Source: Vicinamibacteria bacterium (GTDB taxonomy: Bacteria > Acidobacteriota > Vicinamibacteria > Vicinamibacterales > UBA8438). From it: a stretch of 64,000 nt of DNA. Every line of letters begins with the position of its first letter. Position 1 is the stretch's first letter. Where the stretch lies: the NCBI GenBank assembly GCA_963578725.1, contig CAUZDS010000001.1, positions 70,841 to 134,840 on the forward strand, read 5' to 3'. The position numbers and the translations under genes were made by a program. Under the pieces are notes generated by a model that did no database searches, was not told where the DNA came from, and worked only from the letters and a program-made list of their open reading frames with translations. Below are positions 4,153 through 59,028 of this stretch, piece after piece.

Positions 4153-4597
4153 TCAGTTCCCATCCTTCCACAACGTCTCGCCCTTTATGAACCACGCCCA
4201 ACCAAAGACCCACAATGCCAGCGACTCCAGCCAGAACACAGGCTTGATCGATGCCACGGACGTGTTCTTGAGAAAAGCGAAGTTAGAGTGATCGAAGTGA
4301 TGCACGCCAGGATGATCACACCGCAGGCCACGTAAACGCGGTTTCGAATCTCCTTCTCCGGTGAGGGAGAAGCATCCTTCTTCGTCTTGGTGAAGAGGTG
4401 CAGCGAGAAGTAGGACAACAACAGGAACAGTGCGGTCGCGGAAACGAAGTGCACCGTGTGTATCGCCCTGCTCTCGCTCATGGTGGAAAACAACCCACGG
4501 CAAGCAGCACGGGCAGCAGGACGCCCAAGCTACCGACCACCCGTCTGAGCGTCAGATAGGACACCAATACCCGCGTGCCATCACCGTTCTTGTCCAT
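4153..4597 (-). pseudogene. Frameshifted small integral-membrane protein (conserved hypothetical)
   Basis: Three successive minus-strand frames each carry one piece. Piece 1, 4597->4478: MDKNGDGTRVLVSYLTLRRVVGSLGVLLPVLLAVGCFPP*. Piece 2, ORF 4185..4493: AIHTVHFVSATALFLLLSYF...RNRVYVACGVIILACI. Piece 3, 3' part of ORF 4153..4503: KPVFWLESLALWVFGWAWFIKGE. Hydrophobic helices continue across both frame changes. The region is visibly less GC-rich than its neighbours. Confidence 0.6.
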
Positions 4598-4627
4598 AGA
4601 TGTCGCTCCCAGGCCGTCGAGCGGTGG

Positions 4628-4665
4628 GCGGCTGATCGCCTGCGCTAGCGCAGGCGATCAGCCGC
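4628..4665. repeat. 38-nt perfect palindrome (GCGGCTGATCGCCTGCGC TA GCGCAGGCGATCAGCCGC)
   Basis: Read directly from the sequence: 18-nt arms are exact reverse complements around a central TA. It lies between the NUDIX stop (4757) and the pseudogene start (4597). No T-tract follows on either strand. Confidence 0.9.
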
Positions 4666-4756
4666 GACCCGAAGCATCATCGGTCGCATCGCCTTGTTGC
4701 GCGCACAGTGTGGCTGCCGCCTGTCTCCTGCCTCCCGGTTCCTCAGGGGCATTGCT

Positions 4757-5293
4757 CTACCGGCAGTGGGTGTGCAGGACGCCGGCGAAATAGTCGCGCA
4801 GCGCCTCGCGCGTGCTCCTGAAGGCGAGCTCGTCCCAGGGGATGTCCGCATCGGCGAATGTGCGAATCTCGATACTCTCGTCGTCGTGCTCGAGCTCGCC
4901 GGCCGTCGCCGTGGCCGCGTAGACAATGATAACGGGCGGGCGACCTTCGTAGGAGTAGACGCTCACGAGCCCGTCGAGTCGGATCTCGAGCCCGGCTTCT
5001 TCCCGCGCTTCACGCACGGCGGCGGCAGCCACTACTTCGCCCCGGTCCACGTAGCCACCCGGGAAGACCCACAGGCCGTACCCCGGCGCGATCGCGCGAC
5101 GCACCAGCACTATCCGGTCGTCTGGCATCGTGATGATCGTGCCCACCGCGACCTTGGGGTCGAGGTAAAGCACAAACTCGCAGGCGGTGCAGACGAGCCG
5201 CTCGGGTTCGCCCGGCTTGAGCAACCTCGAAACGAGCGCGCTGCCGCAGACCGGGCAGAAGCGGTAGACGCCGCCATGGTCGTGAGGATGCAT
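4757..5293 (-). CDS. NUDIX hydrolase with N-terminal zinc-ribbon
   Basis: ATG at 5293. Contains CPVCGS...CTAC Cys pairs and the Nudix box GGYVDRGEVVAAAAVREAREEAG. The rest of the 420-aa ORF 4757..6019 is antisense to def. Confidence 0.85.
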   Translation of the reverse strand: MHPHDHGGVYRFCPVCGSALVSRLLKPGEPERLVCTACEFVLYLDPKVAVGTIITMPDDRIVLVRRAIAPGYGLWVFPGGYVDRGEVVAAAAVREAREEAGLEIRLDGLVSVYSYEGRPPVIIVYAATATAGELEHDDESIEIRTFADADIPWDELAFRSTREALRDYFAGVLHTHCR

Positions 5294-5341: not shown

Positions 5342-5869
5342 ATGTCCATCTTGAAGGTTGCGCGGATGGGGCACCCGGTGCTTCGGACGCCCGCCCGTCC
5401 GCTCGAGCCCGATGAGATCGGGACGCGGAAGATCCAGCAGCTCATCGACGACATGTTCGAGACGATGGACGACAGCCAGGGTGTCGGGCTCGCCGGTCCG
5501 CAGGTCCACGAGAGCATCCGCCTGTTCGTGGCCGGTGTGGACGGCGAGGAGGGGATGATGTCGCCCGTCGTCCTCATCAACCCCGAGGTTACACCGATCG
5601 GCTCGTCGGTCGAAGATGACTGGGAAGGCTGTCTGAGTATCCCGGACATCCGGGGGCGCGTGTCCCGCGCTACCGACATCCGAATCCGAGCGGTCGACCG
5701 TCACGGGCAGGCGCTCTCGATGACGGCGAACGGCTTCCCGGCGCGGGTCGTCCAGCACGAGACCGACCATCTGGACGGCGTGCTGTTCTTCGACCGGATG
5801 ACGTCGTTCGAGAGTCTGTCGTTTCTCGAGGAGTACTCGCGCTACTGGTCGAAGAAGGAAGAGGGTTAG
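5342..5869 (+). CDS. def: Peptide deformylase
   Basis: Carries GVGLAGPQV, EGCLSIP and HETDHLDG, the three canonical deformylase motifs. Confidence 0.95.
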   Translation: MSILKVARMGHPVLRTPARPLEPDEIGTRKIQQLIDDMFETMDDSQGVGLAGPQVHESIRLFVAGVDGEEGMMSPVVLINPEVTPIGSSVEDDWEGCLSIPDIRGRVSRATDIRIRAVDRHGQALSMTANGFPARVVQHETDHLDGVLFFDRMTSFESLSFLEEYSRYWSKKEEG

Positions 5870-7542: not shown

Positions 7543-8337
7543 GTGAACATCATCCTCGTTCCGGGCTGCAACACGAATTCCTACACCGGCGCCGGCAACA
7601 ACACTTACCTGATTCCAGGCCTGACGCCGACGTTACTGGACGCCGCGACCGGCGAGGCCGCGCATCTGACTACGCTGGCGGGTGCCCTCGCGTCCGTGCG
7701 CCTCGCCCACGTACTGGTCACCCATGCGCATCCAGACCATGCGGACGGCTGCGACGCCATCGCCGCGCGCTGGCCGGATACCGCCTTCAGGAAGATGCCG
7801 TGGCCTGAGCGTGACCGGCTCCACGCTGTCGAGTGTCTGCCGATCGCGGACGGAGACCTGATCGCCGCCGGTGACGGTCAGCTGCGCGCCATCCACACGC
7901 CGGGCCACGCGCCCGACCACCTCTGTTTCCTCGACGAGACCAGCGGCACGCTCTTTTCGGCGGATCTGGTGGTATTGGGCGGCAGCGTCGTAATTCCCGC
8001 TTCTCGCGGCGGCAGCCTCTCGCAGTATCTCGCGTCGCTGCGGCGCGTGCTGGCCCTGGCGCCTGCGCGGATGCTGCCGGCGCATGGCGCGGCCATCGAA
8101 AACCCGACCGCGGTGCTCGACCGCTATCTGGATCATCGACAGCGGCGGGAGGACGAGATCGTCGCCGCGCTGGGCGCCGGTGACCGGCGGCCGGACGCGA
8201 TCGTCGATCGGGTGTACGAGGGCCTGGAGACCGGACTTAAACGACTGGCGCACGAGAACGTCGTGGCGCATCTGGTCAAGCTGCTGGACGAGGGGCTCGT
8301 CCGATTGGACGACGAGGAATGGAAGCTGGATGGTTAG
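7543..8337 (+). CDS. MBL-fold metallo-hydrolase
   Basis: Carries THAHPDHADG (the HxHxDH motif), then HTPGHAPDH. GTG at 7543 was chosen because the upstream part of ORF 7009..8337 is antisense to the ThyX-like gene. Confidence 0.8.
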   Translation: MNIILVPGCNTNSYTGAGNNTYLIPGLTPTLLDAATGEAAHLTTLAGALASVRLAHVLVTHAHPDHADGCDAIAARWPDTAFRKMPWPERDRLHAVECLPIADGDLIAAGDGQLRAIHTPGHAPDHLCFLDETSGTLFSADLVVLGGSVVIPASRGGSLSQYLASLRRVLALAPARMLPAHGAAIENPTAVLDRYLDHRQRREDEIVAALGAGDRRPDAIVDRVYEGLETGLKRLAHENVVAHLVKLLDEGLVRLDDEEWKLDG

Positions 8338-9571
8338 CTTTCTCGAACGTCGGTTTCACCTCGCCGAGCACGGCACAACCCCGCGTGCCAAGATACTGGC
8401 CGGTGTGACCACGTTTCTGGCACTGGCCTATATCCTCTTCGTCCAGCCGGCCGTGCTGAGCGCGGTTGGGCTCGACTTCAGCGCCGTCTTCGTCGCTACC
8501 TGTCTCGCGTCGGCGTTCGCCACGCTGCTGATGGCTGGGTTCGCCAACTATCCGATTGCAGTCGCTCCGGCGATGGGGCACAACTTCTATTTCGCCTTCA
8601 CGGTCGTGGTGGCGATGGAGGTTCCGTGGGAGGTGGCGCTGGGCAGGGTGGCCGTGGCCGGGCTCCTGTTCATCGCGACGGCCGGGTTCGGTCTGCGGGA
8701 GCGGTTGAGCACCGCCACCCCCCACTCCCTGAAGCATGCGATCGCGACTGGAATCGGTCTACTGATCGCAATGATCGGGCTGCAGTGGGCCGGTGTCATC
8801 GGCGCATCACCCGGTACCCTTGTCACGCTTGGCGACCTGCGCGCGCCGCCGGTCCGGGTGGCGATGCTGGGACTGGTCGTGATGGCGGTGCTCTGGGTAC
8901 GCGGGGTCCGGGCGGCGATCCTGCTTGGCATCCTGGCCTCCACGCTCGCCGCCTGGCTCGGCGGTCTGGTGCGGTTTCAGGGAGTGGCGGGGGTGCCCCC
9001 CCTCGATCCTGCCGACGCTAGGACAGTTCGATATCCTCGGCGCCTTGCGGCCCGACATGGTCGCCGTGATCTTCGCATTCTTCTTTCTGGCCTTGTTCGA
9101 CTCGGTCGGCACCGTCGTCGGTGCCGGTCTCGGCACCTCCACGGTCACCGCCTTCATCGAGAGCGCGAGCGGTGTGGCGGCCGGTGGGCGAACCGGTCTC
9201 ACCGCGGTCGTCATCGCCCTGCTGTTTCTGCTGTCGCTGTTTCTGTCGCCACTGGTCAGTATGATCGGAGGTGGGTACGACGCGGGGGGTCGGATCACCC
9301 TGTACCCGGTGGTCGCGCCGGCACTGATTCTTGTTGGTACGATGATGGTGCGCGGGGTGCGCCGGATCGACTGGGACGACCCGACCGAGGCGCTGCCGGC
9401 GTTCTTGACGCTGATGGTGATGCCGCTCGCGGTCAGCATCACCGACGGTATCGCCTTCGGGTTCTCGCCTACGCGGTGCTGAAGCTTGCCACCGGACGCG
9501 GCGGCGAGGCGCACTGGCTCGTGCATCTATTCGCGGTGCTGTTCCTGGTCAGATACGCCTTGTTAACGTGA
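8330..9571 (+). pseudogene. NCS2/AzgA-type purine (adenine/guanine/hypoxanthine) permease, interrupted by two frameshifts
   Basis: The N-terminal third (FLERRFHLAEHGTTPRAKILAGVTTFLALAYILFVQP) and the C-terminal tail (AYAVLKLATGRG) are in frame 2. The central ~155 aa (SILPTLGQFDILGAL...GTSTVTAFIESASGVAAGGRTGLTAV...GIAFGF) are in frame 0 (ORF 8925..9482). The switches occur at the C7 run 8996..9002 and near 9462..9467. Confidence 0.8.
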
Positions 9572-18138: not shown

Positions 18139-20478
18139 TCAGTTCCGGAGTGGTCTGCCGGTCTTGAGCATGTGGCGGATCCGCTCCAAAGTAGGTGGCT
18201 CACCACACAGGCTCAGAAACGCCTCCCGCTCCAGATCCAGCAGGTACCGCTCGGTTACCGTCGTCGCGTGCGGGATATCGCCTCCGGTCATGATCCGAGT
18301 GATCTTTCTGGCGATCAGGGCGTCGTGGTCGCTGATCCGTCCACCCCGCCACGCCAGGTGGATGCTCAGGTCCAGCGCCGCCCGCGCGTCCTCGCCGCCC
18401 ACCGGAATCGCGGCGCGGGGGGCGGGTGCCTGGTACCCGTCGCGCACACGGTGGAGCACCGTGGCCTTGGCATCGGTCATCAGCCGCTCCCGGTTCATCG
18501 TAATGCCGTCGACATCTCGGAGCAGCCCGAGTCGCCTCGCATCCGCGGCACTGGTCGACACCTTACCGAACCCGATCGTCTCGAACGCGCGTTGCAGCCC
18601 GCGGAGCGGGTCGGTGCCAGGGGCCGTCGAGTCGATTGCCCGGAGGGTGAGCTCCTTGGTGCCGCACCCGGCCGGGATCAGTCCAACACCCACCTCCACC
18701 TGACCCAGGTAGGTCTCGGCCGCCGCTTGAACCCGGTCGGCGTGGAGCACCATCTCGCACCCACCACCGAGCGCAAGGCCGGCAGGCGCCACCACGACCG
18801 GCACTGGCGAGTAGCGCAGTCCGATGATCGCCTTCTGAAAGCCGCGCACCATTAAATCGATCTCGGCCCAGTTGTCCTCCTGTGCCTCGAGCAGCACCAT
18901 CATCAGGTTGGCGCCGGCACAGAAATTCGCCGCGTCGTTGCCGACGACCAGCCCGTCGAACCGCTCCGACGCCTGCGTCACACCGCCGATCAGCATCTGG
19001 ACGGTGTCGCCGCCGATGGTGTTCAGCTTCGAATGAAACTCGACCGCCAGCACACCGTCGTCGAGGTCCACGAGACTGGCGCCGGCGTTCCGCGCGACGA
19101 CCTGGCCCCGCTGCTTCGCGGCGCCGAGGATCTGCAGGTCTGGAGCGGCCGGGGGCAGCGGTGCGGTCCGAAAGCGCCGCGGACAGTCCTCCGACCCGTC
19201 GGACCCAGGCGGGAGTCGGGCCCACTCGAGTGCCGCGGCGGGCAGATCGTCGCGGCCACAGCCCTCGAGCACCGCATCGACCCCGATGGCGTCCCAGAGC
19301 TCGAACGGACCCTCGTTCCAGCCGAAGCCCCAGCGCATCGCCCGGTCGACGTCGTCGGCCGTGTGGGCGATCGCGGCGGCCACTTCCGCGGAATAGATCA
19401 GCGTGCGGCCCAGCGTCGCGCGCATGAACTCGCCGACCCTGTCGCGCGCCAGAAACAGGTGGCGTATCCGCTCCACGGGGTCGTCGATCGTCTGCGCCGC
19501 ATCGAGGGTCCCGATCTGGCCAGACTGCCAAGGCCGGTAGTCCATAGTCGCCGGGTCCAGCGTGAGGATCGTGCTGCCCTCCGGGCCACGTTCTTTCTTG
19601 TAGAAGCCCTGACCCGCCTTGTCGCCGATCCAGCCACGTTCCACGAGCTGGCCGACGAGGGGTGGCAACTCGAACGCCCGGTGTTCGTCCTCGGTGTCGA
19701 GGCGCGCGGACAGGTTGGTTGCCACCTGCGCCAGGATGTCAATTCCCGCGATGTCCATCGTGCGAAAGGTCGCGCTCTTGGGCCGGCCGACCACCGGCCC
19801 GGTCAGGGCGTCGATCTCCTCGATCGTGTAGCGTCCGCTCGCGAGCTGCTCCAACACGCGCGCCACGCCGTAGAGACCGATTCGGTTCGCAATGAAGTTG
19901 GGAGTGTCCTTCGCGACGACGACCCCCTTCCCGAGCTGGCGGTCGACGAACGCCGACAACACGGCCACCACGGCCGGGTCGGTGTCGCCGGTGGGAATGA
20001 TCTCGACCAGCCGGAGGTAGCGGGGCGGATTGAAGAAGTGGCTGCCAAGCCAGTGCCGGCGAAACGTCCCGCTACGGCCCTCGGCAATCATACCGATCGG
20101 GATGCCGGACGTGTTCGAGCTCACGATGGCATCAGGTCGGCGCTCGGTCTCCACCCGCGCGAGTAGCGCCTGCTTGGCGTCGAGCCGCTCGATGATCGCT
20201 TCGATGACCCAGTCACAGCCCGCAATCGCCGGCAGGTCACGGTCGAACCCGCCGAGACGGATGCCGGCCTGCGCGGCGCACGTGTAGAACGGGTCCGGCT
20301 TCAGCGCCGCGGCGCGCTTTAGCCCTGACGCCGCGGTGCTGGCGTCGAGATCGAGCAGCATCACGGGCACGCCAGCGTTCGCGATGTGCGCCGCGATCTG
20401 GGCTCCCATAGTGCCGGCCCCGAGCACCGCCACAGAGCGGATGCGCCGGACCGTCGACTCGTGTGAGACGACCGTCAT
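18139..20478 (-). CDS. fadN: Bifunctional 3-hydroxyacyl-CoA dehydrogenase / enoyl-CoA hydratase (FadN architecture)
   Basis: N-terminal NAD motif VLGAGTMGAQIAAHIA (dehydrogenase) and a C-terminal crotonase fold (FCAGANL, APAGLALGGGCE). The start overlaps the TetR stop (ATGA). Confidence 0.9.
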   Translation of the reverse strand: MTVVSHESTVRRIRSVAVLGAGTMGAQIAAHIANAGVPVMLLDLDASTAASGLKRAAALKPDPFYTCAAQAGIRLGGFDRDLPAIAGCDWVIEAIIERLDAKQALLARVETERRPDAIVSSNTSGIPIGMIAEGRSGTFRRHWLGSHFFNPPRYLRLVEIIPTGDTDPAVVAVLSAFVDRQLGKGVVVAKDTPNFIANRIGLYGVARVLEQLASGRYTIEEIDALTGPVVGRPKSATFRTMDIAGIDILAQVATNLSARLDTEDEHRAFELPPLVGQLVERGWIGDKAGQGFYKKERGPEGSTILTLDPATMDYRPWQSGQIGTLDAAQTIDDPVERIRHLFLARDRVGEFMRATLGRTLIYSAEVAAAIAHTADDVDRAMRWGFGWNEGPFELWDAIGVDAVLEGCGRDDLPAAALEWARLPPGSDGSEDCPRRFRTAPLPPAAPDLQILGAAKQRGQVVARNAGASLVDLDDGVLAVEFHSKLNTIGGDTVQMLIGGVTQASERFDGLVVGNDAANFCAGANLMMVLLEAQEDNWAEIDLMVRGFQKAIIGLRYSPVPVVVAPAGLALGGGCEMVLHADRVQAAAETYLGQVEVGVGLIPAGCGTKELTLRAIDSTAPGTDPLRGLQRAFETIGFGKVSTSAADARRLGLLRDVDGITMNRERLMTDAKATVLHRVRDGYQAPAPRAAIPVGGEDARAALDLSIHLAWRGGRISDHDALIARKITRIMTGGDIPHATTVTERYLLDLEREAFLSLCGEPPTLERIRHMLKTGRPLRN

Positions 20479-21122
20479 GTCGTCATTCCGTTGACGAAGA
20501 GGTCAACGACCTCGTCCGCCTGGACCGGTAGGGCATAGTGCCACCGGCTGAGAACCCAGTTGGTGGCCATTTCGCCCAGGGCGCCGTACAGCATCTTGGC
20601 GGCGAATGTCGGGCTGATGTCGTGGCGAAAGAGCCGGGCGGTCTGGGCGTCGGCGATCGCGTCGCGAATGGCGTGCAGGTAGCTCCGGAGCAGGGTGGAG
20701 GAAAAGCGCTCCATGAACTTGGTGGATTGTCGCAGCTCGACCTGAAATACCACCGCCAGGTCGCGGTCCTGTCCCAAACGTTCCAGGTGCAGCCTGGCCA
20801 GCCGTCGGAGACGATCGACCGGGTCGTTGATCCCGGCCAGTGCGTGGCGGCCGGCCTCGATCCCTTCGTGCATCGTGCGCTCGAAGATCGAGATCAGCAG
20901 GTCGTCCTTGCTCTCGAAATACAGCTAAACGGTGCCGGCGGCGATGCCCGCCTCTCGCACCACGTCGGCGACCTGCGCATTGAAGAAGCCGCGGCGAGCA
21001 AACAGCTTCGTGGCGGCTTTGAGGATGAGCTCGCGCTTGTCACCTAGGTGTTGTGACCGTGGCGCGCGATGGACCGCGGAGGTGACGGGTATCTGCCTCG
21101 GCGGGAATGAATGAACATTCAT
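20475..21122 (-). pseudogene. TetR-family (FadR/YsiA-like) regulator with an in-frame TAG after codon 65
   Basis: ORF 20925..21122 ends ...VADVVREAGIAAGTV*. The same frame continues LYFESKDDLLISIFERT into ORF 20475..20873. The TAG at 20925..20927 sits where TetR proteins carry the Tyr of the GT(L/V)Y.YF motif. Confidence 0.8.
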
Positions 21123-30694: not shown

Positions 30695-32404
30695 TTACCG
30701 CCGGGTGGCCACGATGAACCTGCGGTTCCTGTCGAGAAAGGTTCCGTAGTCGTGAATCTCGCTGCGTTCGACGGCGAAGAACTGCTCGATGATGGCGACG
30801 GTCTTCCCGAAGTCGTCACCCTCCAGTTCAGGTGGATGTGACTCGAAGAGCAGTCTTCCCCCTGGAGCGGTCAGCTCGTGACACCGGCGAAAATAGTCGA
30901 CGAGCGACTGTTGCGTGTTGCCATCGACGGTGTGGTGATTGGCGAAGGAGATGACGTCGTCGAACGCCTCGTCGATCTCGAGGTCCTCGAACGCGACGGC
31001 AGAGAACTCGACGTTGTCGGCCTTCAAGAACTGCGCTCCGCGCCTGGCGATTCGTACCAGGTATGGGTTCAGCTCGAACGCGACGATCCGGTCGGTTTCG
31101 GGCGCCAGCGCGAGCGTGAGAAAGCCCGCATTGCACCCGATCTCGAGCACCTTTCGGCCTCGAACTAGGTTCCGCAGTCGAAAGGCTTCGACGCGTCCGG
31201 TCGTGTCGCGTAAGCCGGTGACGCCGAGTTGCTCCGACGACTGGTAGAAGTAGCCCTCGCCGTAGTCGTAACTGTCCCATTCCACCGCTTGCAGGGCGAG
31301 TGCTCGGTGCATGTCGCGGTGCAGGGCGAGCCTCTCTGGATGATCTTGAAGATCCCGGTAGTCCTTCTGCCGGTTCTGGAGGCTCACCTTGCGTAGGCGA
31401 GAGGGAGTTCTGAGTGCGTCGAGCGTGAACCGGAGCGGCGCCAGCGGCCGCACCCTCTCGTAGTACCGGAAGTACCTGCGCTGCCGATCGGCAGCGCTGC
31501 GCTCTGGCACTGTCGCCGCTGGAGGTCGGCGTTCGATCGCGAAGAGCATCCTGAGGGCTCGCGACCGAAGCAACGGATGCATAAAGTGATAGGTGAGGCC
31601 CACCTGCAGGTTTTGTGGTGACGTGGGAAGGTCGAGCGGGTCATCCCGCGCGAGGACTTCGTTCACGAGGAACTCTGCACGCAGCAACGGGTCGATGAAC
31701 GAGTACACGGCGCGGTACAGGGTCTGGTCGTCGATTGCTTCAGCCGACGGGACCGGTATGCGGAGTGCATCGAGCTCCCGTGCTGCGAGCACGTCGCCCG
31801 CATCGAGGCCCGGCGCCATCCAGAAGGCTGAGGCGCCGGGTCGACCGTTGGTCATGATCGACCAGAGCAGCACGTCCGCACCGCGTACGTCGGGAAGTAG
31901 ACCGGAGTGCACATGGATCATGCGAAGGCGATCGAGCCCGAGCACCGACCGTGGCACGATTCCCCCACCGGTATAGACGACCGTTGCGGGCACGAGTCGA
32001 CGAAGCGCTTCACGCAGAGTCGCGTCCTTGAGCGAGTTCGCCACAACGCGATCGACGTCGTCGGCGTACGCGTCGTACGAGAACCGGTCGTAAATCTCGG
32101 CGTAGATGGCCACCGGGTCGTCGACGAACGCGCCCATGGCCAGGCTGATCGACTGGACCAGATCTGGATGCTATTTGCGGATGGTCCGTGGATGGAAGTT
32201 GTGGGACCGATCCTGCATGCGTGCCAACCAATGAACGCGCCAGGTGCTCCGAGTCGGAGGGCGACGCCGCCGCTCTGCCCAGGGGTCGCGCACTATCAGG
32301 ACGATTCGTTGCGGGCGGAGGCCAGCGCGGCTCATACGCACGAGGTACGCGCGAGCCTGGGGGCCCTCCCAGGCAAGGACCGTGACCGGAATTGTTGCGC
32401 TCAC
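30695..32404 (-). pseudogene. Formyltransferase-like / class I SAM-methyltransferase fusion, split by one in-frame TAG (77-aa and 480-aa ORFs in the same frame)
   Basis: ORF 32171..32404 (IPVTVLAWEGPQARAYLVRMSRAGLRPQRIVLIV, a Rossmann-like start) and ORF 30695..32137 share one frame and are separated only by the TAG at 32171..32173 plus 11 codons. The 480-aa part has the formyltransferase core IHVHSGLLPDVRGADVLLWSI...APGLDAGDVL and the methyltransferase motif I VLEIGCNAGF. Confidence 0.65.
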
Positions 32405-32745
32405 GCGTCACCAGGTCGAGGCGTCCGGAGCCGGTCGAGGGTCTCGATGCCCCAGGCACGAAGCTCGGGCTCGCGGGGGAGGCGTTCTCGCAGGTCGAGC
32501 GCCTTCAGAGCCGAGTTCGCGCACTTGAGTCCCCATCCGTCGTTGATGGCGTCGACGCGCGCGTCGCCGACACGCGCGGCATTAGCCAGCAACACCGCGA
32601 CCAGTCCGCTCAAGACGCTCGGCTCGACCGGTCGCTCGGTATCGAGGCTGCTCCAGTCGAGGCGGTAGGAGGTTGAGACGGTCTTCCGGACGTCGATCTG
32701 CCGACACAAGGCGTCGAGCGTTCGACGTTCATCGCCTGTGAACAC
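32401..32745 (-). CDS. Hypothetical protein, translationally coupled to the formyltransferase-like gene
   Basis: 114-aa ORF with a GTG start. Its TGA overlaps the GTG of the next ORF (GTGA). The frame stays open and protein-like for 58 more codons upstream (to the stop at 32920..32922) without an ATG, GTG or TTG. Confidence 0.4.
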   Translation of the reverse strand: MFTGDERRTLDALCRQIDVRKTVSTSYRLDWSSLDTERPVEPSVLSGLVAVLLANAARVGDARVDAINDGWGLKCANSALKALDLRERLPREPELRAWGIETLDRLRTPRPGDA

Positions 32746-32930: not shown

Positions 32931-33134
32931 TCACGTTTCTCGGAACGTCGATGAGCGGCGGCCGCGCGCCCGGATTTCGCCGGCGGTCGTTTCGAGATGC
33001 TCCGCCAAGCGGCTCATGATCGCCACGTCGCATCCGTGCGCCGCCAGCGCCAGCGCGATCCCTCTGCAGATGCCGATGCCGCCGCCCGTGATCAACGCGT
33101 TGCGGCCAACCAGCAGGTCTGGTTGAAAAGACAT
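32931..33134 (-). pseudogene. Truncated short-chain dehydrogenase/reductase (N-terminal ~60 aa only)
   Basis: Contains LITGGGIGICRGIALALAAHGCDVAIMSR...AGEIRARG, the SDR Rossmann start. The frame ends after 67 aa, whereas SDRs are about 250 aa. Confidence 0.75.
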
Positions 33135-37771: not shown

Positions 37772-37925
37772 CGCGAGGCGCAGTGTAATGGCTATTCCTG
37801 GCGAACCGCAAACCTTAGACAGCCCGCATGTCTTGACGCTCACCGGTCCATCGATTCAAATGGCTGCCGTGGAGGGAATGCTGCGCCGTATCTTGGGTCG
37901 CGGAACACCGACTGTCGAGTAACCG

Positions 37926-38300
37926 GTGGCCGTCGTCTCGGGGCTGCCCCATTCCGGCACCTCGATGCTCATGGGCATAATTGCGGCCGGCGGGCTCGAC
38001 ACCGTGGTCGACGGCATACGCGAGCCGGACGATGACAACCCGGGGGGCTACTACTAGCTGGAACGGGTGAAGGCGCTTGACGAAATCGGCCTCGGCGGGG
38101 TACAACCTTGGGGTTGTGTTCAGCCGTGCCCGAGCCACTTGCTGCTGTTGTCCGGAGACCCACTGGGTCCCCGAGCTGACGGTCGCGTCGCGCTGAAGCA
38201 CTACAACCCGGCTAGCAAGAGCCAACGCGAGGAACCAGAAGCCCGGAAGCCACAAGCTCCCGGGTTTTTTTTGCGCGCGGTCGGCGCCGTGGTACTCGAG
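37926..38300 (+). pseudogene. Decayed PAPS-type sulfotransferase remnant
   Basis: GTG at 37926 opens VAVVSGLPHSGTSMLMGIIAAGGLDTVVDGIREPDDDNPGGYY, the PAPS-binding P-loop start of small sulfotransferases. An in-frame TAG follows at 38055..38057, then LERVKALDE and increasingly divergent sequence. The C-terminal half is absent. Confidence 0.6.
38242..38272 (+). terminator. Intrinsic terminator-like hairpin plus T8
   Basis: CCCGGAAGC-CACAA-GCTCCCGGG (9 stem positions with 1 A.C mismatch) is followed directly by TTTTTTTT (38265..38272). It lies 35 nt upstream of the DUF2061 start. Confidence 0.55.
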
Positions 38301-45950: not shown

Positions 45951-46661
45951 CGAAGATCCGCCCGAACCACTCAAACGGCGTCAGTCTCGATTCGCTAGCG
46001 GCTTCTCTTACAGCCGCGCCACGCGGGAGCTACCCATCTCCAGCAGGCGACAAGGGTGGGCCAGCCGAAGCCCCCGCTAAAAGCGGACAACGGCCCCATG
46101 CTATCGAGATTCTATGTACCAGGCGTCATCCACAATTTCAAGGGAGCCCTCTTGGGTCGACGGCTTTGCCAGGAAATACCACGGGGCCGAGAGTTCAGGG
46201 AGAGCAACAGATACACAACCTAGACTGATCCTGGAAACCGGGCGCTGCATTTCGGACCCGAGCCCTTCGTGGCGGGTCGGTGGCGTGGTCCGGGTCTTGC
46301 CACACAGCGAGTGGCAGCCTCAGGGAGCGGGGAAGGTCCGAGAGCCAGGCCGGCGAGGCCGAAGAGCCGCTACGACTTGAACATCCTGGGCATCCTGGCT
46401 AGCGGGTCGTACATTCTGTCGACGACGCGTTCCGTGAGCGGGACGATCCCGATGCCGGTGATATCGATTCCCCCAGGACTCACCGACACCGGCGCCGGGC
46501 GACTGCCGCTGCGGCGGTTCGACCCGGAATCGCGAAGCGATACAGTCTGGAATCTGTGGGTTTAGGCTAGTTTCCCCTTGATGTAAAGCGACGGCCTCGA
46601 TTATCCTGTCGAACCTATTGAACCCGCTTGAACCCGCGCGTAAGGCTTCCAAGACACAGTA

Positions 46662-48404
46662 ATGAGTGGACACTCGTGTGACGTGCTCATCGTTGGTGGC
46701 GGCGGGGCCGGTCTGCGCGCAGGTATCGCTGCAGCGGAAGCGAAGCCGGATTTGAACATCGCTGTCGTGTCCAAGGTGTATCCGATGCGGAGCCATACGG
46801 TTGCGGCCGAAGGCGGCGCCGCGGCTGTCATCAAGCCTGGAGACAGCACCGAGGCCCATGCCTACGACACCGTATCCGGGGCAGATTGGCTGTGCGATCA
46901 GGATGCAGTCGAGGTGTTTGTCGAGGAAGCGCCACGTGAAATGGTACAGCTGGAACACTGGGGTTGTCCCTGGAGCCGAGAACCGGATGGCACAGTCGCT
47001 GTCCGCCCGTTCGGCGGGATGAAGGCGCAGCGGACGTGGTTCGCCGCGGACAAGACCGGTTTCCACATGCTCCACGCGCTGTTCCAGACGTCGCTAAAGT
47101 ACGACGCGGTCAAACGATTCGACGAGTGGTTCGTCACCAGGCTACTGGTCAATGACGGGCGCTGTCTGGGCGTCGTGGCCATCGAGCTGGCCACCGGACA
47201 GATCCATAGCATCACGGCGAAGGCCGTGATCCTGTGCACTGGTGGCTGCGGCAAGATCTTCCCGTTTACAACCAACGCGAACATCAAGAACGGCGACGGG
47301 ATGGCGCTGGCGTATCGGGCAGGCGCGCCGCTCAAGGACATGGAGTTCGTCCAGTACCACCCGACGGGACTGCCCGCGACCGGGATCCTGATCACCGAGG
47401 CCGCACGGGCAGAAGGCGGGTGGCTGGTCAACAAGGACGGCTACCGGTATCTCCAGGACTACGATCTCGGCACACCGGAGCCCACACCGGTACTGCGGTC
47501 GATGGAGCTCGGTCCCCGGGACCGGTTGTCGCAAGCGTTCATCAAGGAACAGGGGAAAGGTCGCACGCTGGAAGGTCCGTACGGCCACTATGTCAATCTG
47601 GATATCCGCCAGATCGATGAGAAGGTCATCGACAAAAAACTCCCCTTCGTGCGCGAGTTGTGTCTGAAGTACGCCAACCTCGACCCCGTCCACGAACTGA
47701 TCCCAGTCCGACCGGTCGTCCACTACATGATGGGTGGCGTTCACACCGACATCAACGGCGCGACGCCGCTCGCCGGACTGTATGCGGCGGGCGAGGTGGC
47801 CTGTGTGAACTTGAACGGCGCCAATCGTCTTGGGTCGAACTCGCTGACCGAATGCCTTGTCTTTGGCGCCAGGGCCGGGCGGGCGGCGGCCGAGTTCGCA
47901 GAACAGTCTGGCCTGGTCGACCCATCCGTGGAAGCGCAGGTTCGAGACGAGCAGCGACGGCTGCACGACGACTTTCTCACCTCGACCCACGGGACGGAAC
48001 GGATCGCCGCTTTGCGGGCCGAGATGCAAACGACCATGGAGGAGGGTGCGGGAATCTACCGCACCGGGACCACCCTTGACGCCGCGGTGGAGACGATGGG
48101 CCGCTTGCGTCAGCGCGCCCGACATCTAAAGCTGGACGACCGGAGCCGGACCTTCAACACGGAGCTGGTCTCGGCCCTCGAGCTCGGCTACATGCTCGAT
48201 CTGGCCGAGGTGATCCTCCGGTCTGCGGCGCAGCGAACCGAATCACGTGGGGCGCATCAGCGGACGGACTATCCTGACCGGGATGACGAGCGGTTTCTAG
48301 CCCATACCCTGGTGCACCGCACGACGGATGGCTCGGCACGCATCGAGTACTTACCGGTGACCATCACGAAGTGGCCACCTGGAGACCGGGTATACGGAAG
48401 ATAG
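46662..48404 (+). CDS. frdA: Fumarate reductase flavoprotein subunit
   Basis: Close match over its length to E. coli FrdA as I recall it ([55 protein letters not shown]). Confidence 0.9.
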
Positions 48405-48408
48405 TGAC

Positions 48409-49155
48409 ATGGCGGAAACCATCACGCTGACCGTTTCGCGGTACCGGCCGGAGCAGGAGTCGGAACCGACCTTTCAAAGCTACGACGTGCCGTACGACGA
48501 GGACTGGGTGATCCTGGACGCGCTGAACTACGTCAAGGATCAGCTCGACGGGTCGTTGACCTTCCGCTGGTCGTGCCGAATGGGTGTGTGTGGCAGCTGC
48601 GGGATGATGGTCAACGGCACGCCGAAGCTCACGTGCGCCATTCCGCTCTCCGACTATGTGTCGTCGGGACCGATTCGGATCGAGCCGCTGCAGTTCTTTC
48701 CGGTCGTCCGCGACCTCGTGGTCGACATGAACGGATTTCTGGGAAAGCTGTCCAGTGTCAAGCCGTGGATCATCCGGGACGACGAGACACCGCCGACCGA
48801 GGGCGAATACCTGCAGACACCGGCCGAGCTCGACGTCTACAAGCAGTTCAGCATGTGCATCAACTGCATGCTGTGCTACTCGGCATGCCCAGTCGTGGGG
48901 CTCGAGCCCGAGTTCACCGGGCCGGCCGCCATCGCGCTTGCGCAGCGTTACAATCTGGATTCGCGTGATCAGGGGGCCGCGGAGCGGATGGCCGTCCTGA
49001 ACGAGCACGAGGGAATGTGGGGCTGCACTTTTGTAGGTGAGTGCACCGAAGTATGTCCCAAGAACGTCGACCCGGCAGCCGCAATCCAGCTGTACAAGAT
49101 GGCTAGCGCCACCGACTGGTTCAAGTCCGTGTTATTGCCGCGGGGTTCGAAGTGA
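48409..49155 (+). CDS. frdB: Fumarate reductase iron-sulfur subunit
   Basis: Contains [15 protein letters not shown] (2Fe-2S), [12 protein letters not shown], and [13 protein letters not shown] clusters. Confidence 0.9.
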
Positions 49156-49568
49156 GCGTCCAGACCGGTAGCCCGTCCGGCCCGCCGGAGTTGTACCATC
49201 GCCCGATGTCGTTCTGGTGGTGGCTGCAGAAGCGTGCGTACTTCAACTTCATCCTACGCGAGCTTACTTGCGTCTTCGTCGGGGTCTTTGCCGTGATCAC
49301 GATTTTGCAGATTCGAGCCCTGTCACAGGGTCCGGACGCATATGCGGAGTTCATCAACCGGCTGAGGACGCCAGGTTTCATTCTGTTCAACACGGTGGGC
49401 CTCGCGGCCCTGCTCTTCCACGCCATCACGTGGTTCAAGGCCGTTCCTACGACGATGATCGTCCGGTTCGGCGGAACGCGCGTCCCCGACCAGGTGATCG
49501 CGGGCTTGCACTACGTGGGATGGATGGTGGTGTCCGTAGTCGTTGCGTGGATTCTGTTGCTCAGATAG
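49152..49568 (+). CDS. frdC: Fumarate reductase membrane subunit C
   Basis: 138 aa with three helices. The start overlaps the frdB stop. The [20 protein letters not shown] pattern matches FrdC. Confidence 0.75.
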
Positions 49569-49571
49569 ACG

Positions 49572-49922
49572 ATGAGAGGCATCACACCGTTTCTGTGGTT
49601 TTTGTTCGGGACCGGAGGGATGGTCTCGGCCCTCCTGTTTCCGATCCACGTTCTCTTGATCGGTCTCGCGTTTCCCCTGGGGTGGCTTGACGCTCCGGAC
49701 TACGAGTCACTTCGTAGTCTGGTCATCCATCCGATCACGAGGCTGTATCTGTTCGTCTTCATTTTCTTCCCGCTCTTTCATTGGGCCCACCGCTTCCGTT
49801 ACACAATCTATGATCTTTTTCAGATCAAACACGGAGCCCAGCAGCCAATTGCCTTCCTCTGCTATGGCGCCGCGCTGCTGGGGACTATCTTCGCGGCCTA
49901 TACGCTGTTGGCCATCGCGTAG
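49572..49922 (+). CDS. frdD: Fumarate reductase membrane subunit D
   Basis: 116 aa. FLWFLFGTGGMVSALLFPIHVLLIG parallels the FrdD sequence FWGLFGAGGMWSA. Confidence 0.75.
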   Translation: MRGITPFLWFLFGTGGMVSALLFPIHVLLIGLAFPLGWLDAPDYESLRSLVIHPITRLYLFVFIFFPLFHWAHRFRYTIYDLFQIKHGAQQPIAFLCYGAALLGTIFAAYTLLAIA

Positions 49923-50169
49923 GACGCGTTACAAGAGCGCCGCAGGGCGAAAGGTCGGCCCGGAACGCCTTGTGGCAGGCACCGCGATAGTAGCAGCAGA
50001 TTCGCTGGAAACAGACCGGCGCCCTGAAGAATTAGGGAAGGCCGGCTGAGCGCACCGGCTGCTCCTTGCTTCTGACCTCTGCCTCCCGACTCCTCTGGGG
50101 TCCAGGCGCGCTATATTCCCCGGATGGGTTTACCCCGCCGAGCTAGTCCATCTAGGTGAGAATCTAATC

Positions 50170-50650
50170 CTAACGCTCACGCAAGTACGGCGACGGGTTC
50201 CCCACGTCCAGATGCTTCGGACTCGGCAGCACGGCGGCGAGCAGCGCCGCTTGTCGGCGGTAGAGTTGGGACGGCAGCCTGGCAAAGCACCGCTCGCTGG
50301 CGGCACCGACTCCATATACGCCGTACCCAAACTCCGCCACGTTGAAATAGACCTCGAGGGATGCGACGCTTGCTCTAGGTCGGCTCGACCAACACCTCCA
50401 GGTAGCCCTCTGGCCCTTTACGGACCAGGCTTCGGCCAGACCAGAGGAACAGGTTCTTGGCGACCTGATGCGAAATGGTACTGGCCCCGCTCAGCCGTCC
50501 ACCGACGGCGCGCCTCCAGCGCGTCGTCGATCGCCTGGAAGTCCAGCCCGTGATGCAGCCTAAAAGCGCCGGCCCTCGGCGGCCACCACGGCGACAGCGA
50601 GCTAGGGGCTCATCCCACGCCAATCGACCCACCGGTAGCGCGACCGTCGC
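50170..50650 (-). pseudogene. mtgA: Heavily decayed monofunctional peptidoglycan glycosyltransferase (MtgA-like)
   Basis: Four minus-strand frame segments carry the pieces. They read [23 protein letters not shown] / [14 protein letters not shown] / [42 protein letters not shown] / LEVYFNVAEFGYGVYGVGAASERCFARLPSQL..AALLAAVLPSP. There are three in-frame TAGs (50602..50604, 50560..50562, 50375..50377), at least 3 frameshifts, and the N-terminal anchor is missing. Confidence 0.85.
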
Positions 50651-50656
50651 TCCGTG

Positions 50657-52463: not shown

Positions 52464-53431
52464 GCGAACCCTCTGCCCAACCCGGCCGAGGACCGGCGAG
52501 CGCCGTTCGCGGCGAACCTCGCCGGCTTCCGACCCACGCTCGCCCGCTTCTCGCGGCCGTTGCGACCCGGCACGGCGGATACCAACCGTGCCGATGCGTC
52601 TATTCCCAATCTATGTAGCGGAGAATCGAGTGTCCAGAGAGGATGGATACTTGCCGGCTCGTCTTGCTGTGTCCGTTCCAGGAACCGAGCCGCTTCTTTC
52701 CGCCCCAACCCCAGCAGCTCGGCTCGCGACGGGATGTGGCGGCGGTGTCGGTCATCCCGGTCATGATAGTCGACAGGGCACTGCCGCTTACCCATCCGAG
52801 CCCGGGCCCGGGCCGCGGCCCGGGCGCACGCTCCCTGCCACCGGTTCGCTGCGCCGGCCGGGCCGGGACCAGCACGTGCACCGGCATGACGGTCGCGCGG
52901 CCCGCACCGCATCAGTTCGATCGACCCGTCACCTGACAACCGCCGCGACGCGCAGCGGCGGACTCGTTGTCGTCCGCTCTGCGCCCACTGCGGAGCTACG
53001 CGAGCATTACGTCGTCGGAGACGCCCGCGGTCTTGAATTCTCGGAGGCGGGAGAGTATGAGCGGATACGCGACATCGTCGATCTAGACAAGCGCGATCAG
53101 CACGATGTCGCCGATGCCGGCCTGAGATGGCTCGACGACATCGGAGAAGGTGACCGCTTGCGCGCGCGCTCCGGCAAGAGCGAACACACCAATCGTTATA
53201 CACAGCACGATTCCGGTACGCATGTGCTCTCCGACGGGCAGGCTCCGGTTGGCGCGGGGCTGGCGCTCCATACTTGGTTGATGAATTACGCAAAAAAAAC
53301 GCCGCTTTCTTCAGATCTGTGTGCGCTCCAGAAGCCGCCGAAAGCTGTCCCCTGCCCCTTATCTACTGTCTCCTCGTGGGGACGCTCCCAAGCTACCGGT
53401 CGTCGCTGTGCCGCAGGGTGCCCAGATCTTC

Positions 53432-54133
53432 TCATCGGGACGACTCGTCGAGCTCGTCCTCGTCGTAGTAGTCAATTTTGTGCAGTGGCATCACAACGCT
53501 CGAGAGGATGTTCAAGACGTGACCGCCGATCCGCTTGTAGTAGCGCGTGGCGAGCACGAGCACCGTGGTGGACTCTCCACCGTAGCCGGCCCGTCCGATC
53601 CGGGTGATCAACACGTCGCACCGGTGGGCGATGTCGCGGCCCTGCTGGATCATCTGCACCGCCTGTTCCCGGTCGGAGGCCTTGAAGATCTCGGAAGCCG
53701 CCTGGAACGCCGCCTCCACTCCATAGCGGATCTCACCCAGCTCGCCCACCAGTTCGTCGTCCGGAAACGAACCGCTACCGATATCGACCACCTCGGACAG
53801 ATTCTTGGCGTAGTCTCCGAGCCGCTCGACGTCCTTGGCCAAGCTCATCAACAGCAGGCAGTAAGGCACGTCGACCCGGGAACCCGGAATCGACAGATGC
53901 GCCACAACCAGTTTCCGGATGGATCGCTCGAGCATGTTCACCTCGCGGTCGAGCGCGTAGAGATCAGTCCTCCGCTCGGGGGTGACCTCACCACCGAAGG
54001 CCATGTTCCCGGCCGACAAGGTCATCTCGTAGGTCAGCTGCAGCATTCGACCGAAGTGCTCTCCGACCTCCTGCAGCGGGTCGTGCGTGCGAAGAATGCC
54101 GAGTAGCGCGCGTAGCATGTCAGCCCTCCCCAA
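53432..54133 (-). CDS. PhoU-domain phosphate-transport regulator-like protein
   Basis: Two PhoU-like helical repeats (DVERLGDYAKNL, YYKRIGGHVLNI). It lies downstream of the Na/Pi transporter gene. Confidence 0.7.
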   Translation of the reverse strand: MGRADMLRALLGILRTHDPLQEVGEHFGRMLQLTYEMTLSAGNMAFGGEVTPERRTDLYALDREVNMLERSIRKLVVAHLSIPGSRVDVPYCLLLMSLAKDVERLGDYAKNLSEVVDIGSGSFPDDELVGELGEIRYGVEAAFQAASEIFKASDREQAVQMIQQGRDIAHRCDVLITRIGRAGYGGESTTVLVLATRYYKRIGGHVLNILSSVVMPLHKIDYYDEDELDESSR

Positions 54134-56969: not shown

Positions 56970-57017
56970 ACTCAGCTCGATGCCGCTCGGGCACTCCGGC
57001 GCGGCACGGAGCAGAAA

Positions 57018-58181
57018 ATGGCTCGATCGGCGCGGTGGTATAGTGCGCGTGTGGACGACGACATCACGCAGGCGGTGCTGTCTCGCGACGAGGTAGCGCC
57101 CTACCTGCGTGGCGGGGCAGGGCTGACCCCGGACCAAGCCTACGAACGGATCGCAGCCTATCTCGAAGAGCTCAGAACAACCCAGCGATATTCCGTTTAT
57201 CGTGCCCTGAAGCACCCGCTATACCCGATTCTGCGCAAGATCAAGCGGCATCCCGAGCAAATCGAGCTAGCGCAGCGGGCAACCCGGGAGCACCGCGTCG
57301 TCTATGCCTCGAATCACAAGAGCCACATCGACTACCTGGTCGAACTGCTCGTGCTAGACGATTACGGCATCCGCCCCCCAGTAATCGCAGCCGGTATCAA
57401 CCTGTTTCACGGCGCGATGGGTCTATTGAACCGGCATGTGACCGGCGCCATCCCGATCCGGCGCGATTCGCGAGACCCCGCCTATCTGGCCACGTTGAGG
57501 GCGTACGTGGCCGAGTTGGTGCAACGCCACGATCTGTTTCTCTATCTTGAAGGCGGCCGCAGTTACAGCGGCGAGTTCAAATCTTTAAAAACCGGTCTGC
57601 TGCAAGCCGTCATGGCCGCGCGCCGACGGGATGTGGTCATCGTCCCGGTCGCGATCGCCTACGATCTCGTGCTCGAAGACCAGGTGCTGTCGCGGCGGGG
57701 CGCAAAGGGGCATCAACGTCATTTCGCCGTGGAAGTGGCGGAAATGGTGCGGTACGCCGTCGGATACGAATCGCGCGCCTTCGTGACATTCGGTCAGCCG
57801 ATTCCATTCGCAGGTGCCGACCTGGATTCGCGACGGGATCTCGTGATGCTAGCGCGCCGTACCCACGGAGCGATCGGCAAACTCTACAAGGTGCTGCCCA
57901 CCGCGTTGCTGGCAGCCGCCCTCCGCCCATCGATGCACCGGCAGGATCTGGTTGACCGGATTGACCAACTGCTCGACGCGTTGCGCCTCATGAACGCAAA
58001 CCTGGGTGTCGAGACCGGCCGCCAAGCGGTCGAGCAAGCGACCGGTCCACTGGTCACGCGGGGCGTCATCGTGGTCCAGGGCGACCGGTATCGCATCCGT
58101 GAGCGGAGCGTCCTCCGTTACTACGCCAGGACGCTGACCCATCTATTGAACGACCGCGGCAGCTCGAGCTTGACCCACTAA
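57018..58181 (+). CDS. Glycerol-3-phosphate/lysophospholipid acyltransferase family protein (PlsB/PlsC-like)
   Basis: HxxxxD motif NHKSHIDY, plus IPIRRD and YLEGGRSYSGEF blocks. Confidence 0.75.
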   Translation: MARSARWYSARVDDDITQAVLSRDEVAPYLRGGAGLTPDQAYERIAAYLEELRTTQRYSVYRALKHPLYPILRKIKRHPEQIELAQRATREHRVVYASNHKSHIDYLVELLVLDDYGIRPPVIAAGINLFHGAMGLLNRHVTGAIPIRRDSRDPAYLATLRAYVAELVQRHDLFLYLEGGRSYSGEFKSLKTGLLQAVMAARRRDVVIVPVAIAYDLVLEDQVLSRRGAKGHQRHFAVEVAEMVRYAVGYESRAFVTFGQPIPFAGADLDSRRDLVMLARRTHGAIGKLYKVLPTALLAAALRPSMHRQDLVDRIDQLLDALRLMNANLGVETGRQAVEQATGPLVTRGVIVVQGDRYRIRERSVLRYYARTLTHLLNDRGSSSLTH

Positions 58182-58304
58182 CGAGGCTCGCCTCAGACCA
58201 TCCTGACCCGGTCGGCTCCGCCCTCTCCAGTCAGCGGTCCTCACAGCCCCGCCACGACCCTCGCACGGCGGTCGGCACCGCCAAGCGTCGCACCGAAACC
58301 GACG

Positions 58305-59028
58305 ATGCTCGATTCTCTCTCGCGGAGGCTGTTCCTCACACTCGTGGACAGTACCGCTGTCAGACGGTTCGTCTCACGCTACGGCATGCGGGAAGGCAGC
58401 CTCGTACGGAGATTCATCGCGGGTGAGGCGCTCGAAGACGCGATACGCACCGCGCGGCGACTCACCGGAGGCGGCCTACACTGCACCTTCAACTATCTCG
58501 GCGAAGAGGCAACTTCATCGACTGCAGCCCGCGCGGCGGCCGAGACCTACATAGGCATGATGCGCAGCGTGCGCGCCGCCGGCCTACCGTGTCAAGATCT
58601 CGGCAAAGCTCACGCAGCTGGGGTTGGCGCTTGACCCGGTGGAGTGCGACGCGAACCTCCGCTCCGTGCTCGATGCGGCCGGGGACAGGTGCTTCGTCCA
58701 CATCGACATGAAGCGATCCGCCTGGATCAACCCAACGCTCGATCTCTTCGAGCAGGTCTGGAAGGAGGGTTATCGCAACGTCTGGGTTGCGCTGCAATCG
58801 TATCTGTACCGGACCGAGCGCGGCCTGACGGCGGAGGCATTCGAGTTCGAGATGTTCTTCGGCATCCGGCGGGATCTACAAAACTCGCTGCTCGAACAGG
58901 GCTACCATGTCCGAACCTACCTACCCTTCGAATAACAGTGGTTCCCGTATTTCATGCAACGCCTGGGCGAACGGCCAGCCAACGTGTTGTTCGTCGTACG
59001 CAGCTTGCTCCTCGAGCGCTGGCACTGA
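58305..59028 (+). pseudogene. Proline dehydrogenase remnant with a frameshift, an internal deletion and an in-frame TAA
   Basis: ORF 58305..58634 switches frame near 58580..58590 to VKISAKLTQLGLALDP...VHIDMKRS...ALQSYLYRT. About 110 aa are then missing before FEFEMFFGIRRDLQ..GYHVRTYLPFE. An in-frame TAA lies at 58933..58935, followed by QWFPYFMQRLGERPANVLFVVRSL, ending at the TGA at 59026..59028. Confidence 0.8.

Follow-up and report, generated by a model that had tools for sequence, protein, structure and literature searches.

Introduction

Mycobacterium leprae, Sodalis, Shigella and Salmonella Typhi are the classic accumulators of pseudogenes among bacteria. Accumulation of this kind follows recent ecological shifts or population bottlenecks (Pseudofinder paper, PMC9336565). 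In the Methylophilaceae, genes were lost on the transition to the pelagic zone as part of genome streamlining, and streamlined plankton are described as having few pseudogenes (PMC6794327). A non-canonical genome reduction has been reported for the pelagic Roseobacter lineage CHUG, in which pseudogenes make up 3.9% (no higher than in its relatives) and coding density is ~90%; marine roseobacters have 3.2-4.7% pseudogenes and a coding density of 89-90% (bioRxiv 10.1101/2021.01.15.426902). The Vicinamibacteria are a class with a preference for soil, and its members from outside soil have smaller genomes than those from soil (PMC11778308). Here we describe a 64,000-nucleotide stretch of a Vicinamibacteria genome (contig CAUZDS010000001.1 of GCA_963578725.1, positions 70,841 to 134,840; hereafter the window) in which nine genes are broken among intact neighbours. 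We compare these nine loci with relatives, weigh what may have caused their decay, and set the local density of broken genes against that of the systems above.

Results

Nine of 62 protein-coding loci in the window are broken

The window (66% GC) belongs to an uncultured Vicinamibacterales (Acidobacteriota) population, for which relatives and naming hints suggest an origin in marine metagenomes. FrdB, compared with species-representative genomes, assigns the organism to this order; the best match there had 92% FrdB identity, so none of the returned loci was from the species itself. Public gene calls and precomputed Pfam matches gave 53 intact protein-coding genes, one tRNA gene (tRNA-Glu(CUC), the only tRNA within the window) and nine broken loci, which are 14.5% of the 62 protein-coding loci. 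Broken loci make up 6.3 kb of the window (9.9%), and the coding density of the intact genes is 79%. They are evenly spread across 55 kb among conserved housekeeping genes (thyX, def, frdABCD and cys genes), and mtgA is the only one in contact with a rearrangement.

Lesions were checked by translation, by Pfam model coordinates and, where possible, by alignment to an intact orthologue. Homology was established for all nine loci, for six through Pfam models and for three (the DUF998-like, sulfotransferase and secreted proteins) through homologues or orthologues only. Alignments cross the lesions in eight of the nine; the remaining locus is a stub with nothing left beyond its end. Two close relatives recur in what follows: contigs L183 and L185 from ERZ26167216 (~91-94% nucleotide identity to the window, synonymous divergence dS ~0.2), taken as a sister species, and a sister strain from JGI 3300032278 (98.5-99.4% nucleotide identity).

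Three loci carry stop codons in an otherwise full-length reading frame. The formyltransferase-methyltransferase fusion (569 codons; 30695..32404, minus strand) has a single TAG at 32171-32173. This gene is intact in a contig of 99.4% nucleotide identity (L182, protein P0001), which has CAG (Gln) at the TAG codon, and also in the sister species (L183, 91% nucleotide identity). The FadR/YsiA-type TetR regulator (20475..21122, minus strand), located upstream of fadB, thiolase and acyl-CoA dehydrogenase genes, matches TetR_N (positions 1-46 of 47) and TetR_C_4 (1-133 of 133) across a single TAG at 20925-20927. The stop stands in place of a conserved helix-turn-helix Tyr (GTVYLYF in homologues) that is present in intact, non-syntenic homologues of 80-86% identity. 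The third is a small signal-peptide protein of an uncharacterised family (52600..53223, minus strand) with TAG at 53083, TAG at 52996 and TGA at 52912. It spans all 208 codons without a frameshift and reaches a C-terminal WGWGGKKRPGSWNGHS motif. No Pfam family matched it; 407 relatives were found (best 63% identity), and the alignment extends over all three stops from the signal peptide to the C-terminal YWGWGGKKRPGSWNGHS motif.

Three further genes combine frameshifts with internal deletions. The AzgA-type NCS2 nucleobase permease (8330..9571, plus strand; Xan_ur_permease, E=1e-30) is shifted by +1 at a C7 run (~9000) and by -1 at ~9461, and between the two it lacks 30 codons in frame (~9108); the intact orthologue on a soil contig (L109) aligns to it through frames 2, 3 and 2 with a 30-residue gap, and in the sister species the gene is intact at 443 amino acids. 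The DUF998-like membrane protein gene (4153..4597, minus strand) has lost ~60 codons out of frame at ~4487-4493 (residues 38-97, including the SISDYY motif) and has one frameshift at ~4266-4281. A search for its family (~210 amino acids) gave 346 homologues, of which the best 120 are about 160-356 amino acids long and mostly ~210; residues 1-37, 98-173 and 169-208 of P0148 match the pseudogene in three different frames. An intact 210-amino-acid orthologue lies between NUDIX and ThiI genes in the sister species (L185). The monofunctional proline dehydrogenase gene (ProDH; 58305..59028, plus strand) matches Pro_dh positions 1-130 of 278 and a second stretch. Its frame shifts at ~58594, ~65-70 codons have been deleted at ~58815-58828, and a TAA follows at 58933; residues 1-98, 98-176 and 241-311 of the L016 orthologue match it in two frames, and the gene is syntenic and in a single frame in L016 and in L018-L020.

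The last three are truncated. All that is left of a short-chain dehydrogenase (SDR; 32931..33134, minus strand) is a 67-codon stub matching adh_short positions 2-50 of 195, the remaining ~190 codons being deleted; in the sister species (L183) the gene is cut to its first ~11 codons. No intact syntenic copy was found for either the SDR or the secreted protein. The sulfotransferase remnant beside cysQ (37860..38084, plus strand) has TAA at 37920 and TAG at 38055; residues 76-211 are gone and homology stops at a breakpoint near 38084. In L183 an intact 211-amino-acid sulfotransferase, which matches Sulfotransfer_3 at 36 bits (cut-off 27), adjoins cysQ and has Q and E at the two stop sites. The monofunctional peptidoglycan glycosyltransferase gene mtgA (50131..50650, minus strand) is the most decayed locus: it has seven in-frame TAG codons, five of them in place of Trp or Gln codons, together with three or more frameshifts, and where it meets a MerR gene it has lost its N-terminal ~65 codons. 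Transgly positions 23-177 of 178 still match (E=2e-36) when the frames are conceptually joined. Among the relatives only L062 (OZ250139.1, 14818-15290) has mtgA at this locus, where it is likewise split, over two frames, as a pseudogene or through long-read error.

Much of this had been anticipated by the initial annotation, which named at least nine broken genes among intact neighbours; all nine were found at or near the positions it gave. The TAG codons at 20925 and 32171 and the truncation of the SDR held as described. Elsewhere the damage was real and its details needed revision. One of the two frameshifts assigned to the membrane protein is the out-of-frame deletion; the in-frame deletion in the permease had been missed beside its two frameshifts (C7 included), as had the TAA of the sulfotransferase beside its TAG and C-terminal loss. 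For mtgA the frameshifts and truncation stand and three TAG codons become seven; the secreted protein, a broken member of a real family, had been placed at about 52900..53271; and ProDH, with the frameshift and TAA as noted, has a shorter deletion than the ~110 amino acids proposed. Intact orthologues in relatives, a point that the initial annotation had raised, are syntenic for AzgA, DUF998, sulfotransferase, formyltransferase-methyltransferase and ProDH.

Some open reading frames (ORFs) at or near these loci deserve mention. Two antisense gene calls without Pfam matches look spurious: a 114-amino-acid ORF inside the AzgA pseudogene (8587-8931, minus strand) and a 395-amino-acid ORF that covers the secreted-protein pseudogene and overlaps phoU (52420-53607, plus strand). 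Another 114-amino-acid ORF without a Pfam match, hyp114 (32401-32745, minus strand), lies between the SDR stub and the formyltransferase-methyltransferase gene; it is probably a real small gene, given its conservation in the sister species with a ratio of non-synonymous to synonymous substitution rates (dN/dS) of 0.26-0.29. ThyX (5866-7497, minus strand) is 543 amino acids long, ~2x the usual single-domain length; relatives (L098, L159 and L172) share this long form at 65-68% identity. Stop-codon use in 52 intact genes was TAG 20 (38%), TGA 22 and TAA 10, a TAG share that is high for 66% GC.

The lesions recur in separate assemblies and in diverged strains

Contigs in ENA, JGI and Logan assemblies matched the window at 99.98-100% identity without gaps. 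The matching assemblies were ENA ERZ27247690, ERZ27247695, ERZ27247711 and ERZ27247714, JGI 3300031802, 3300031803 and 3300031804, Logan SRR9039920 and SRR22804948, and the NCBI metagenome-assembled genome (MAG) GCA_963577915.1. An exact string of 31 to 60 nucleotides around every lesion was found in assemblies from two to six samples; the identical lesion was present in five samples for AzgA, in four for the formyltransferase-methyltransferase TAG and in six for the end of the SDR stub. Strain variants carried the same damage. The ProDH C-terminal fragment has the same deletion junction and stop in five variants, and its N-terminal fragment has the same out-of-frame tail in three; the sulfotransferase fragment ends at the same TAG in four; and TetR is cut at the same TAG in a variant whose N-terminal fragment has four amino-acid changes. 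Because the lesions are base-identical in assemblies from two to six samples, we conclude from these comparisons that they are not consensus errors and that all nine genes are genuinely broken in the organism. The initial annotation had likewise held the mixed types of lesion to be hard to explain by any one kind of assembly error.

Most inactivations are recent, and intact neighbours remain under purifying selection

In the sister species AzgA, the DUF998-like gene, the sulfotransferase and the formyltransferase-methyltransferase are all intact and syntenic, which places their breakage after the split at dS ~0.2. The lesions of TetR, ProDH and the sulfotransferase are shared by strain variants and, by this comparison, are older than the diversification of those variants; the TetR TAG is common to the window and the JGI 3300032278 strain (98.5% identity). 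The formyltransferase-methyltransferase stop, which is absent from the sister strain of 99.4% identity, dates on the same grounds to after that split and is the youngest lesion. The order of decay thus read from the alignments begins with the SDR as the oldest, continues with AzgA, DUF998 and sulfotransferase together with TetR and ProDH, and ends with the formyltransferase-methyltransferase; mtgA was not placed in it.

Against the sister species, dN/dS was 0.10-0.20 in 14 of 16 intact genes, the others being DUF4202 (0.31) and hyp114 (0.26). Against the sister strain it was 0.07 for NamZ and 0.12 for DUF420, and higher (0.36-0.57) for two secreted CarboxypepD_reg proteins. These ratios indicate that the intact neighbours remain under purifying selection. 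Among the broken genes, dN/dS against the sister species was 0.16 for AzgA, 0.23 for DUF998, 0.24 for the formyltransferase-methyltransferase and 0.57 for the sulfotransferase. Since the values for AzgA, DUF998 and the formyltransferase-methyltransferase are near those of their neighbours, most inactivations would fall within a short, late part of the branch. Between strains, the N-terminal half of TetR had a dN/dS of 1.4 (from five changes only), and very close strains differed by six non-synonymous and one synonymous change in the formyltransferase-methyltransferase and by three and none in hyp114.

The same genes are lost in another marine lineage

A second marine lineage has lost several of the same genes. 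Contig L098 (marine, 477 kb) is collinear with window positions 60-22129 at 55-80% amino-acid identity, a block that takes up 2.2 kb less there than in the window. Its AzgA (8657-9046) is a 390-nucleotide in-frame remnant that fuses residues 11-70 to 335-411 and lacks the second frameshift of the window. TetR and DUF998 are absent from their syntenic positions, where there are spacers of 112 and 206 nucleotides. In a second marine contig (L099) AzgA is entirely gone, while soil contig L109 has it intact. Since both AzgA and DUF998 are intact in the sister species, the two marine lineages lost them independently. That the same genes were lost repeatedly accords better with dispensability in a particular habitat than with general drift.

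The sister species itself carries ISL3 and DDE_3 transposase genes (L183 13715-18575; L185 17177-18256) and is without the metallo-beta-lactamase-fold gene found at 7543-8337 of the window; the two species therefore lose genes by different routes.

An inversion probably truncated mtgA

Compared with all Vicinamibacterales relatives examined, a block composed of a 711-nucleotide spacer, frdABCD and the mtgA remnant (45951..50656) is inverted. In relatives the order is MerR(+), frdABCD(+) and then pept360(-), with mtgA(-) between frdD and pept360 in L062; in the window it is pept360(+), the spacer, frdABCD(+), the mtgA remnant(-) and MerR(-). This is the order that inversion of an mtgA-frdABCD block would be expected to give. 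The mtgA remnant starts at residues matching RYRWTDW of the L062 protein, exactly at the MerR junction, and the inversion breakpoint probably killed mtgA by removing its 5' end. The block ends have no significant inverted repeats and no insertion sequence (IS). The spacer (45951-46661) has no ORF, homologue, Pfam match or Rfam match.

Broken genes are sparser in the flanks

The nearest 10 kb on the left flank hold one more pseudogene, an extracytoplasmic function (ECF) sigma factor. In a screen less thorough than that of the window, no obvious broken gene was seen in the next ~5 kb on that side or in ~20 kb to the right of the window, both of which are compact. The flanks thus have one pseudogene in ~35 kb where 4.9 would be expected at the window's rate (Poisson P=0.04), which suggests that the window overstates the genomic average. 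Counted with its flanks (~99 kb), the region has 10 broken loci of ~97, a better estimate of density than the window alone. The 9 of 62 in the window exceed the marine roseobacter baseline of 3.3-4.7% at P = 0.0002-0.002, a value that ignores the choice of the window for its dense look; for the extended region against a 3-5% baseline, P=0.001-0.016.

Comparison of subject-ORF tails revealed no hidden C-terminal truncation among 40 genes with a usable orthologue, and six-frame Pfam scans of the seven largest unexplained spacers revealed no further gene remnants, their sole match being an intact dctP gene that runs off the window end. An Rfam search of the window returned nothing besides the tRNA.

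The sigma-factor pseudogene lies at L176 979-1479, about 8 kb left of window position 1, and is present in three assemblies; a TAG at L176 1258 splits Sigma70_r2 from r4_2, and there is also an N-terminal frameshift. On the same side of the window (L176 6690-7819), the gene for a 238-amino-acid HhH-GPD (MutY/Nth-like) glycosylase shares one base with a MutT-like NUDIX gene, in whose place the sister species has an IS630-like DDE_3 transposase (L185 16296-18256). A broken MutY as a mutator cause was considered and dropped: a canonical MutT box is present in the NUDIX ORF, and in the sister species, too, the 238/239-amino-acid glycosylase stands alone.

Discussion

We consider it probable that the nine loci are genuine unitary pseudogenes that arose by ordinary mutations in a species-level population of marine Vicinamibacterales, and that this population is shedding dispensable accessory functions. 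The comparisons above support gene loss that is recent and ongoing. The mutations would comprise nonsense substitutions, small insertions and deletions, deletions of 90-200+ nucleotides and one inversion breakpoint. The functions being lost would include nucleobase uptake (AzgA), FadR-type repression of beta-oxidation genes (TetR), proline catabolism (ProDH) and an accessory peptidoglycan glycosyltransferase (mtgA), along with the sulfotransferase, the formyltransferase-methyltransferase, the SDR, the DUF998-like membrane protein and the small secreted protein. Such functions may be unneeded in the habitat, or their loss may be favoured there. Inactivation would recently have been faster than deletion, leaving all stages of decay visible, from a single stop through multiple lesions to a stub. 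Loss of the TetR repressor probably makes fatty-acid degradation constitutive, and the near clonality of the population fits a recent expansion.

Several points weigh against this explanation. Genes with stops only (TetR, the formyltransferase-methyltransferase and the secreted protein) could still be functional in part. Raw reads may be common to some of the matching assemblies, one of which may be the window's own source. The flanks hold only one further clear pseudogene, so the window may be a locally dense patch. Finally, dN/dS of AzgA is not raised despite three lesions, which points either to very recent, rapid hits or to low power of the estimate.

Many annotated pseudogenes stem from assembler, platform or coverage effects (PMC11017572), and internal stops and frameshifts in metagenome-derived sequence, one of them here in a C7 homopolymer, are just what such effects produce. 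That the lesions are assembly or consensus errors of a MAG nevertheless has hardly any likelihood: they recur identically between samples, variants that differ by other substitutions have frameshift tails, deletion junctions and stops in common, the formyltransferase-methyltransferase TAG cleanly separates two strains, and deletions of 90-200 nucleotides, a truncation and an inversion are untypical of consensus errors. Equally, the organism might read through or suppress TAG, in which case genes broken by TAG alone (TetR and the formyltransferase-methyltransferase, both otherwise perfect ORFs) would still yield full-length protein. TAG makes up 13 of 16 in-frame stops, the sigma-factor pseudogene included, where codon usage predicts ~60% among new nonsense codons, an expectation that holds for various mutation spectra. 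The excess falls short of significance (P=0.065), however, and comes wholly from the seven TAG codons of mtgA (6 of 9 without it, P=0.48). Furthermore, TAG terminates 20 of the 52 intact genes, and gene ends coincide with those of all comparable orthologues (e.g., frdA, frdC, frdD, hupB, rhodanese, cysNC and DUF4202). No intact conserved gene contains an in-frame TAG, and TAG sites match different amino acids (Y, Q, E, W and L). Stops other than TAG (TAA or TGA) occur in the sulfotransferase, ProDH and the secreted protein, the sigma factor also has a frameshift, and the N-terminal half of TetR is neutral between strains. Going by codons and alignments, recoding or efficient suppression of TAG is very unlikely, and we regard continued full-length translation of the TAG-only genes as far-fetched.

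If the lesions are real and are not read through, the question becomes how far the decay extends. The initial annotation likened the pattern to early reductive evolution or relaxed selection. The part of that comparison that stands is recent, ongoing loss in which, as it had also remarked, no IS elements are involved. Genome-wide relaxation through host restriction or a very small population, of the Sodalis or Mycobacterium leprae type, could account for 14.5% pseudogene loci and 79% intact coding density, and would suit a population that is nearly clonal across samples and whose very close strains differ mostly non-synonymously (6:1 in the formyltransferase-methyltransferase, 3:0 in hyp114). 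Selection is not generally relaxed, however, with dN/dS of 0.07-0.20 in intact genes (16 genes; DUF4202 and hyp114 excepted). Gene calls of the window and flanks contain no transposase domain, GC stays at 66% with no AT drift in pseudogenes except DUF998 (56%), pseudogene density in the flanks is ordinary, and a host-derived context was not seen; we thus find this explanation improbable. It is possible, though we doubt it, that the window is instead a patch prone to local decay and rearrangement, or merely lies in the upper tail of a normal distribution, rather than being a sample of something at work across the genome. The single pseudogene in the flanks, the inversion inside the window and the choice of the window for its dense look would fit such a patch. 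Against it, the nine loci are evenly spread over 55 kb amid housekeeping genes, mtgA alone touches the rearrangement, and 10 of ~97 loci is still above a 3-5% baseline even with the flanks included. More speculatively, the window may be a sample of a fast and recent wave of gene inactivation, running ahead of deletion, in a nearly clonal marine population present in several metagenomes; this would be a free-living, or unrecognised particle- or host-associated, counterpart of early reductive evolution, although we consider it unlikely as yet.

Shedding of dispensable functions by a marine population, which we favour, resembles the accumulation that follows ecological shifts or bottlenecks in that many unitary pseudogenes with mixed lesions and ages stand among intact neighbours, regulators, transporters and catabolic genes are affected, and close relatives have intact orthologues. 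It differs from the classical accumulators in that the window is without IS expansion or AT drift, purifying selection is kept, the source is apparently marine metagenomes with no known host, and 10-15% of loci are affected, well below the classical cases. As in the Methylophilaceae, the losses are progressive and parallel and involve a transporter, regulators and catabolism genes, and related lineages are staged, with intact genes in soil, pseudogenes in the window and remnants or deletions in L098 and L099. Streamlined oligotrophs, however, are described with few pseudogenes, compact spacers and low GC, whereas here remnants persist in a GC-rich stretch. Because streamlined plankton are described with few pseudogenes, the window lineage is not streamlined, though it is shedding the kinds of gene that streamlining removes. 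CHUG is likewise a free-living marine lineage whose genome was reduced without the hallmarks of streamlining, but the window is three to four times denser in pseudogenes. The process of gene decay is thus a known one, and its local density is above the few-percent baseline of free-living marine roseobacters. A search of the available literature on pseudogenes in marine Vicinamibacterales found nothing, and this staged, partly parallel record of loss in marine Acidobacteriota appears to be undescribed so far.

These results indicate that the pseudogene load of a MAG can be real, and that it can be checked without raw reads through separate assemblies and diverged strain variants. They also correct metabolic reconstructions, for automated calls list fragments as genes and place spurious antisense ORFs over the wreckage. 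For the biology of the group, the loci show gene loss as a dated series, within a marine branch of an order that lives mainly in soil, from a single stop to multiple lesions, a stub, a remnant and finally a gene that is gone. Nucleobase uptake, FadR-type control of beta-oxidation, proline catabolism and accessory cell-wall synthesis are apparently dispensable away from soil. If a load of roughly 10-15% were true genome-wide, this population would be an unusual natural system in which to follow soil-type Acidobacteriota adapting to the ocean.

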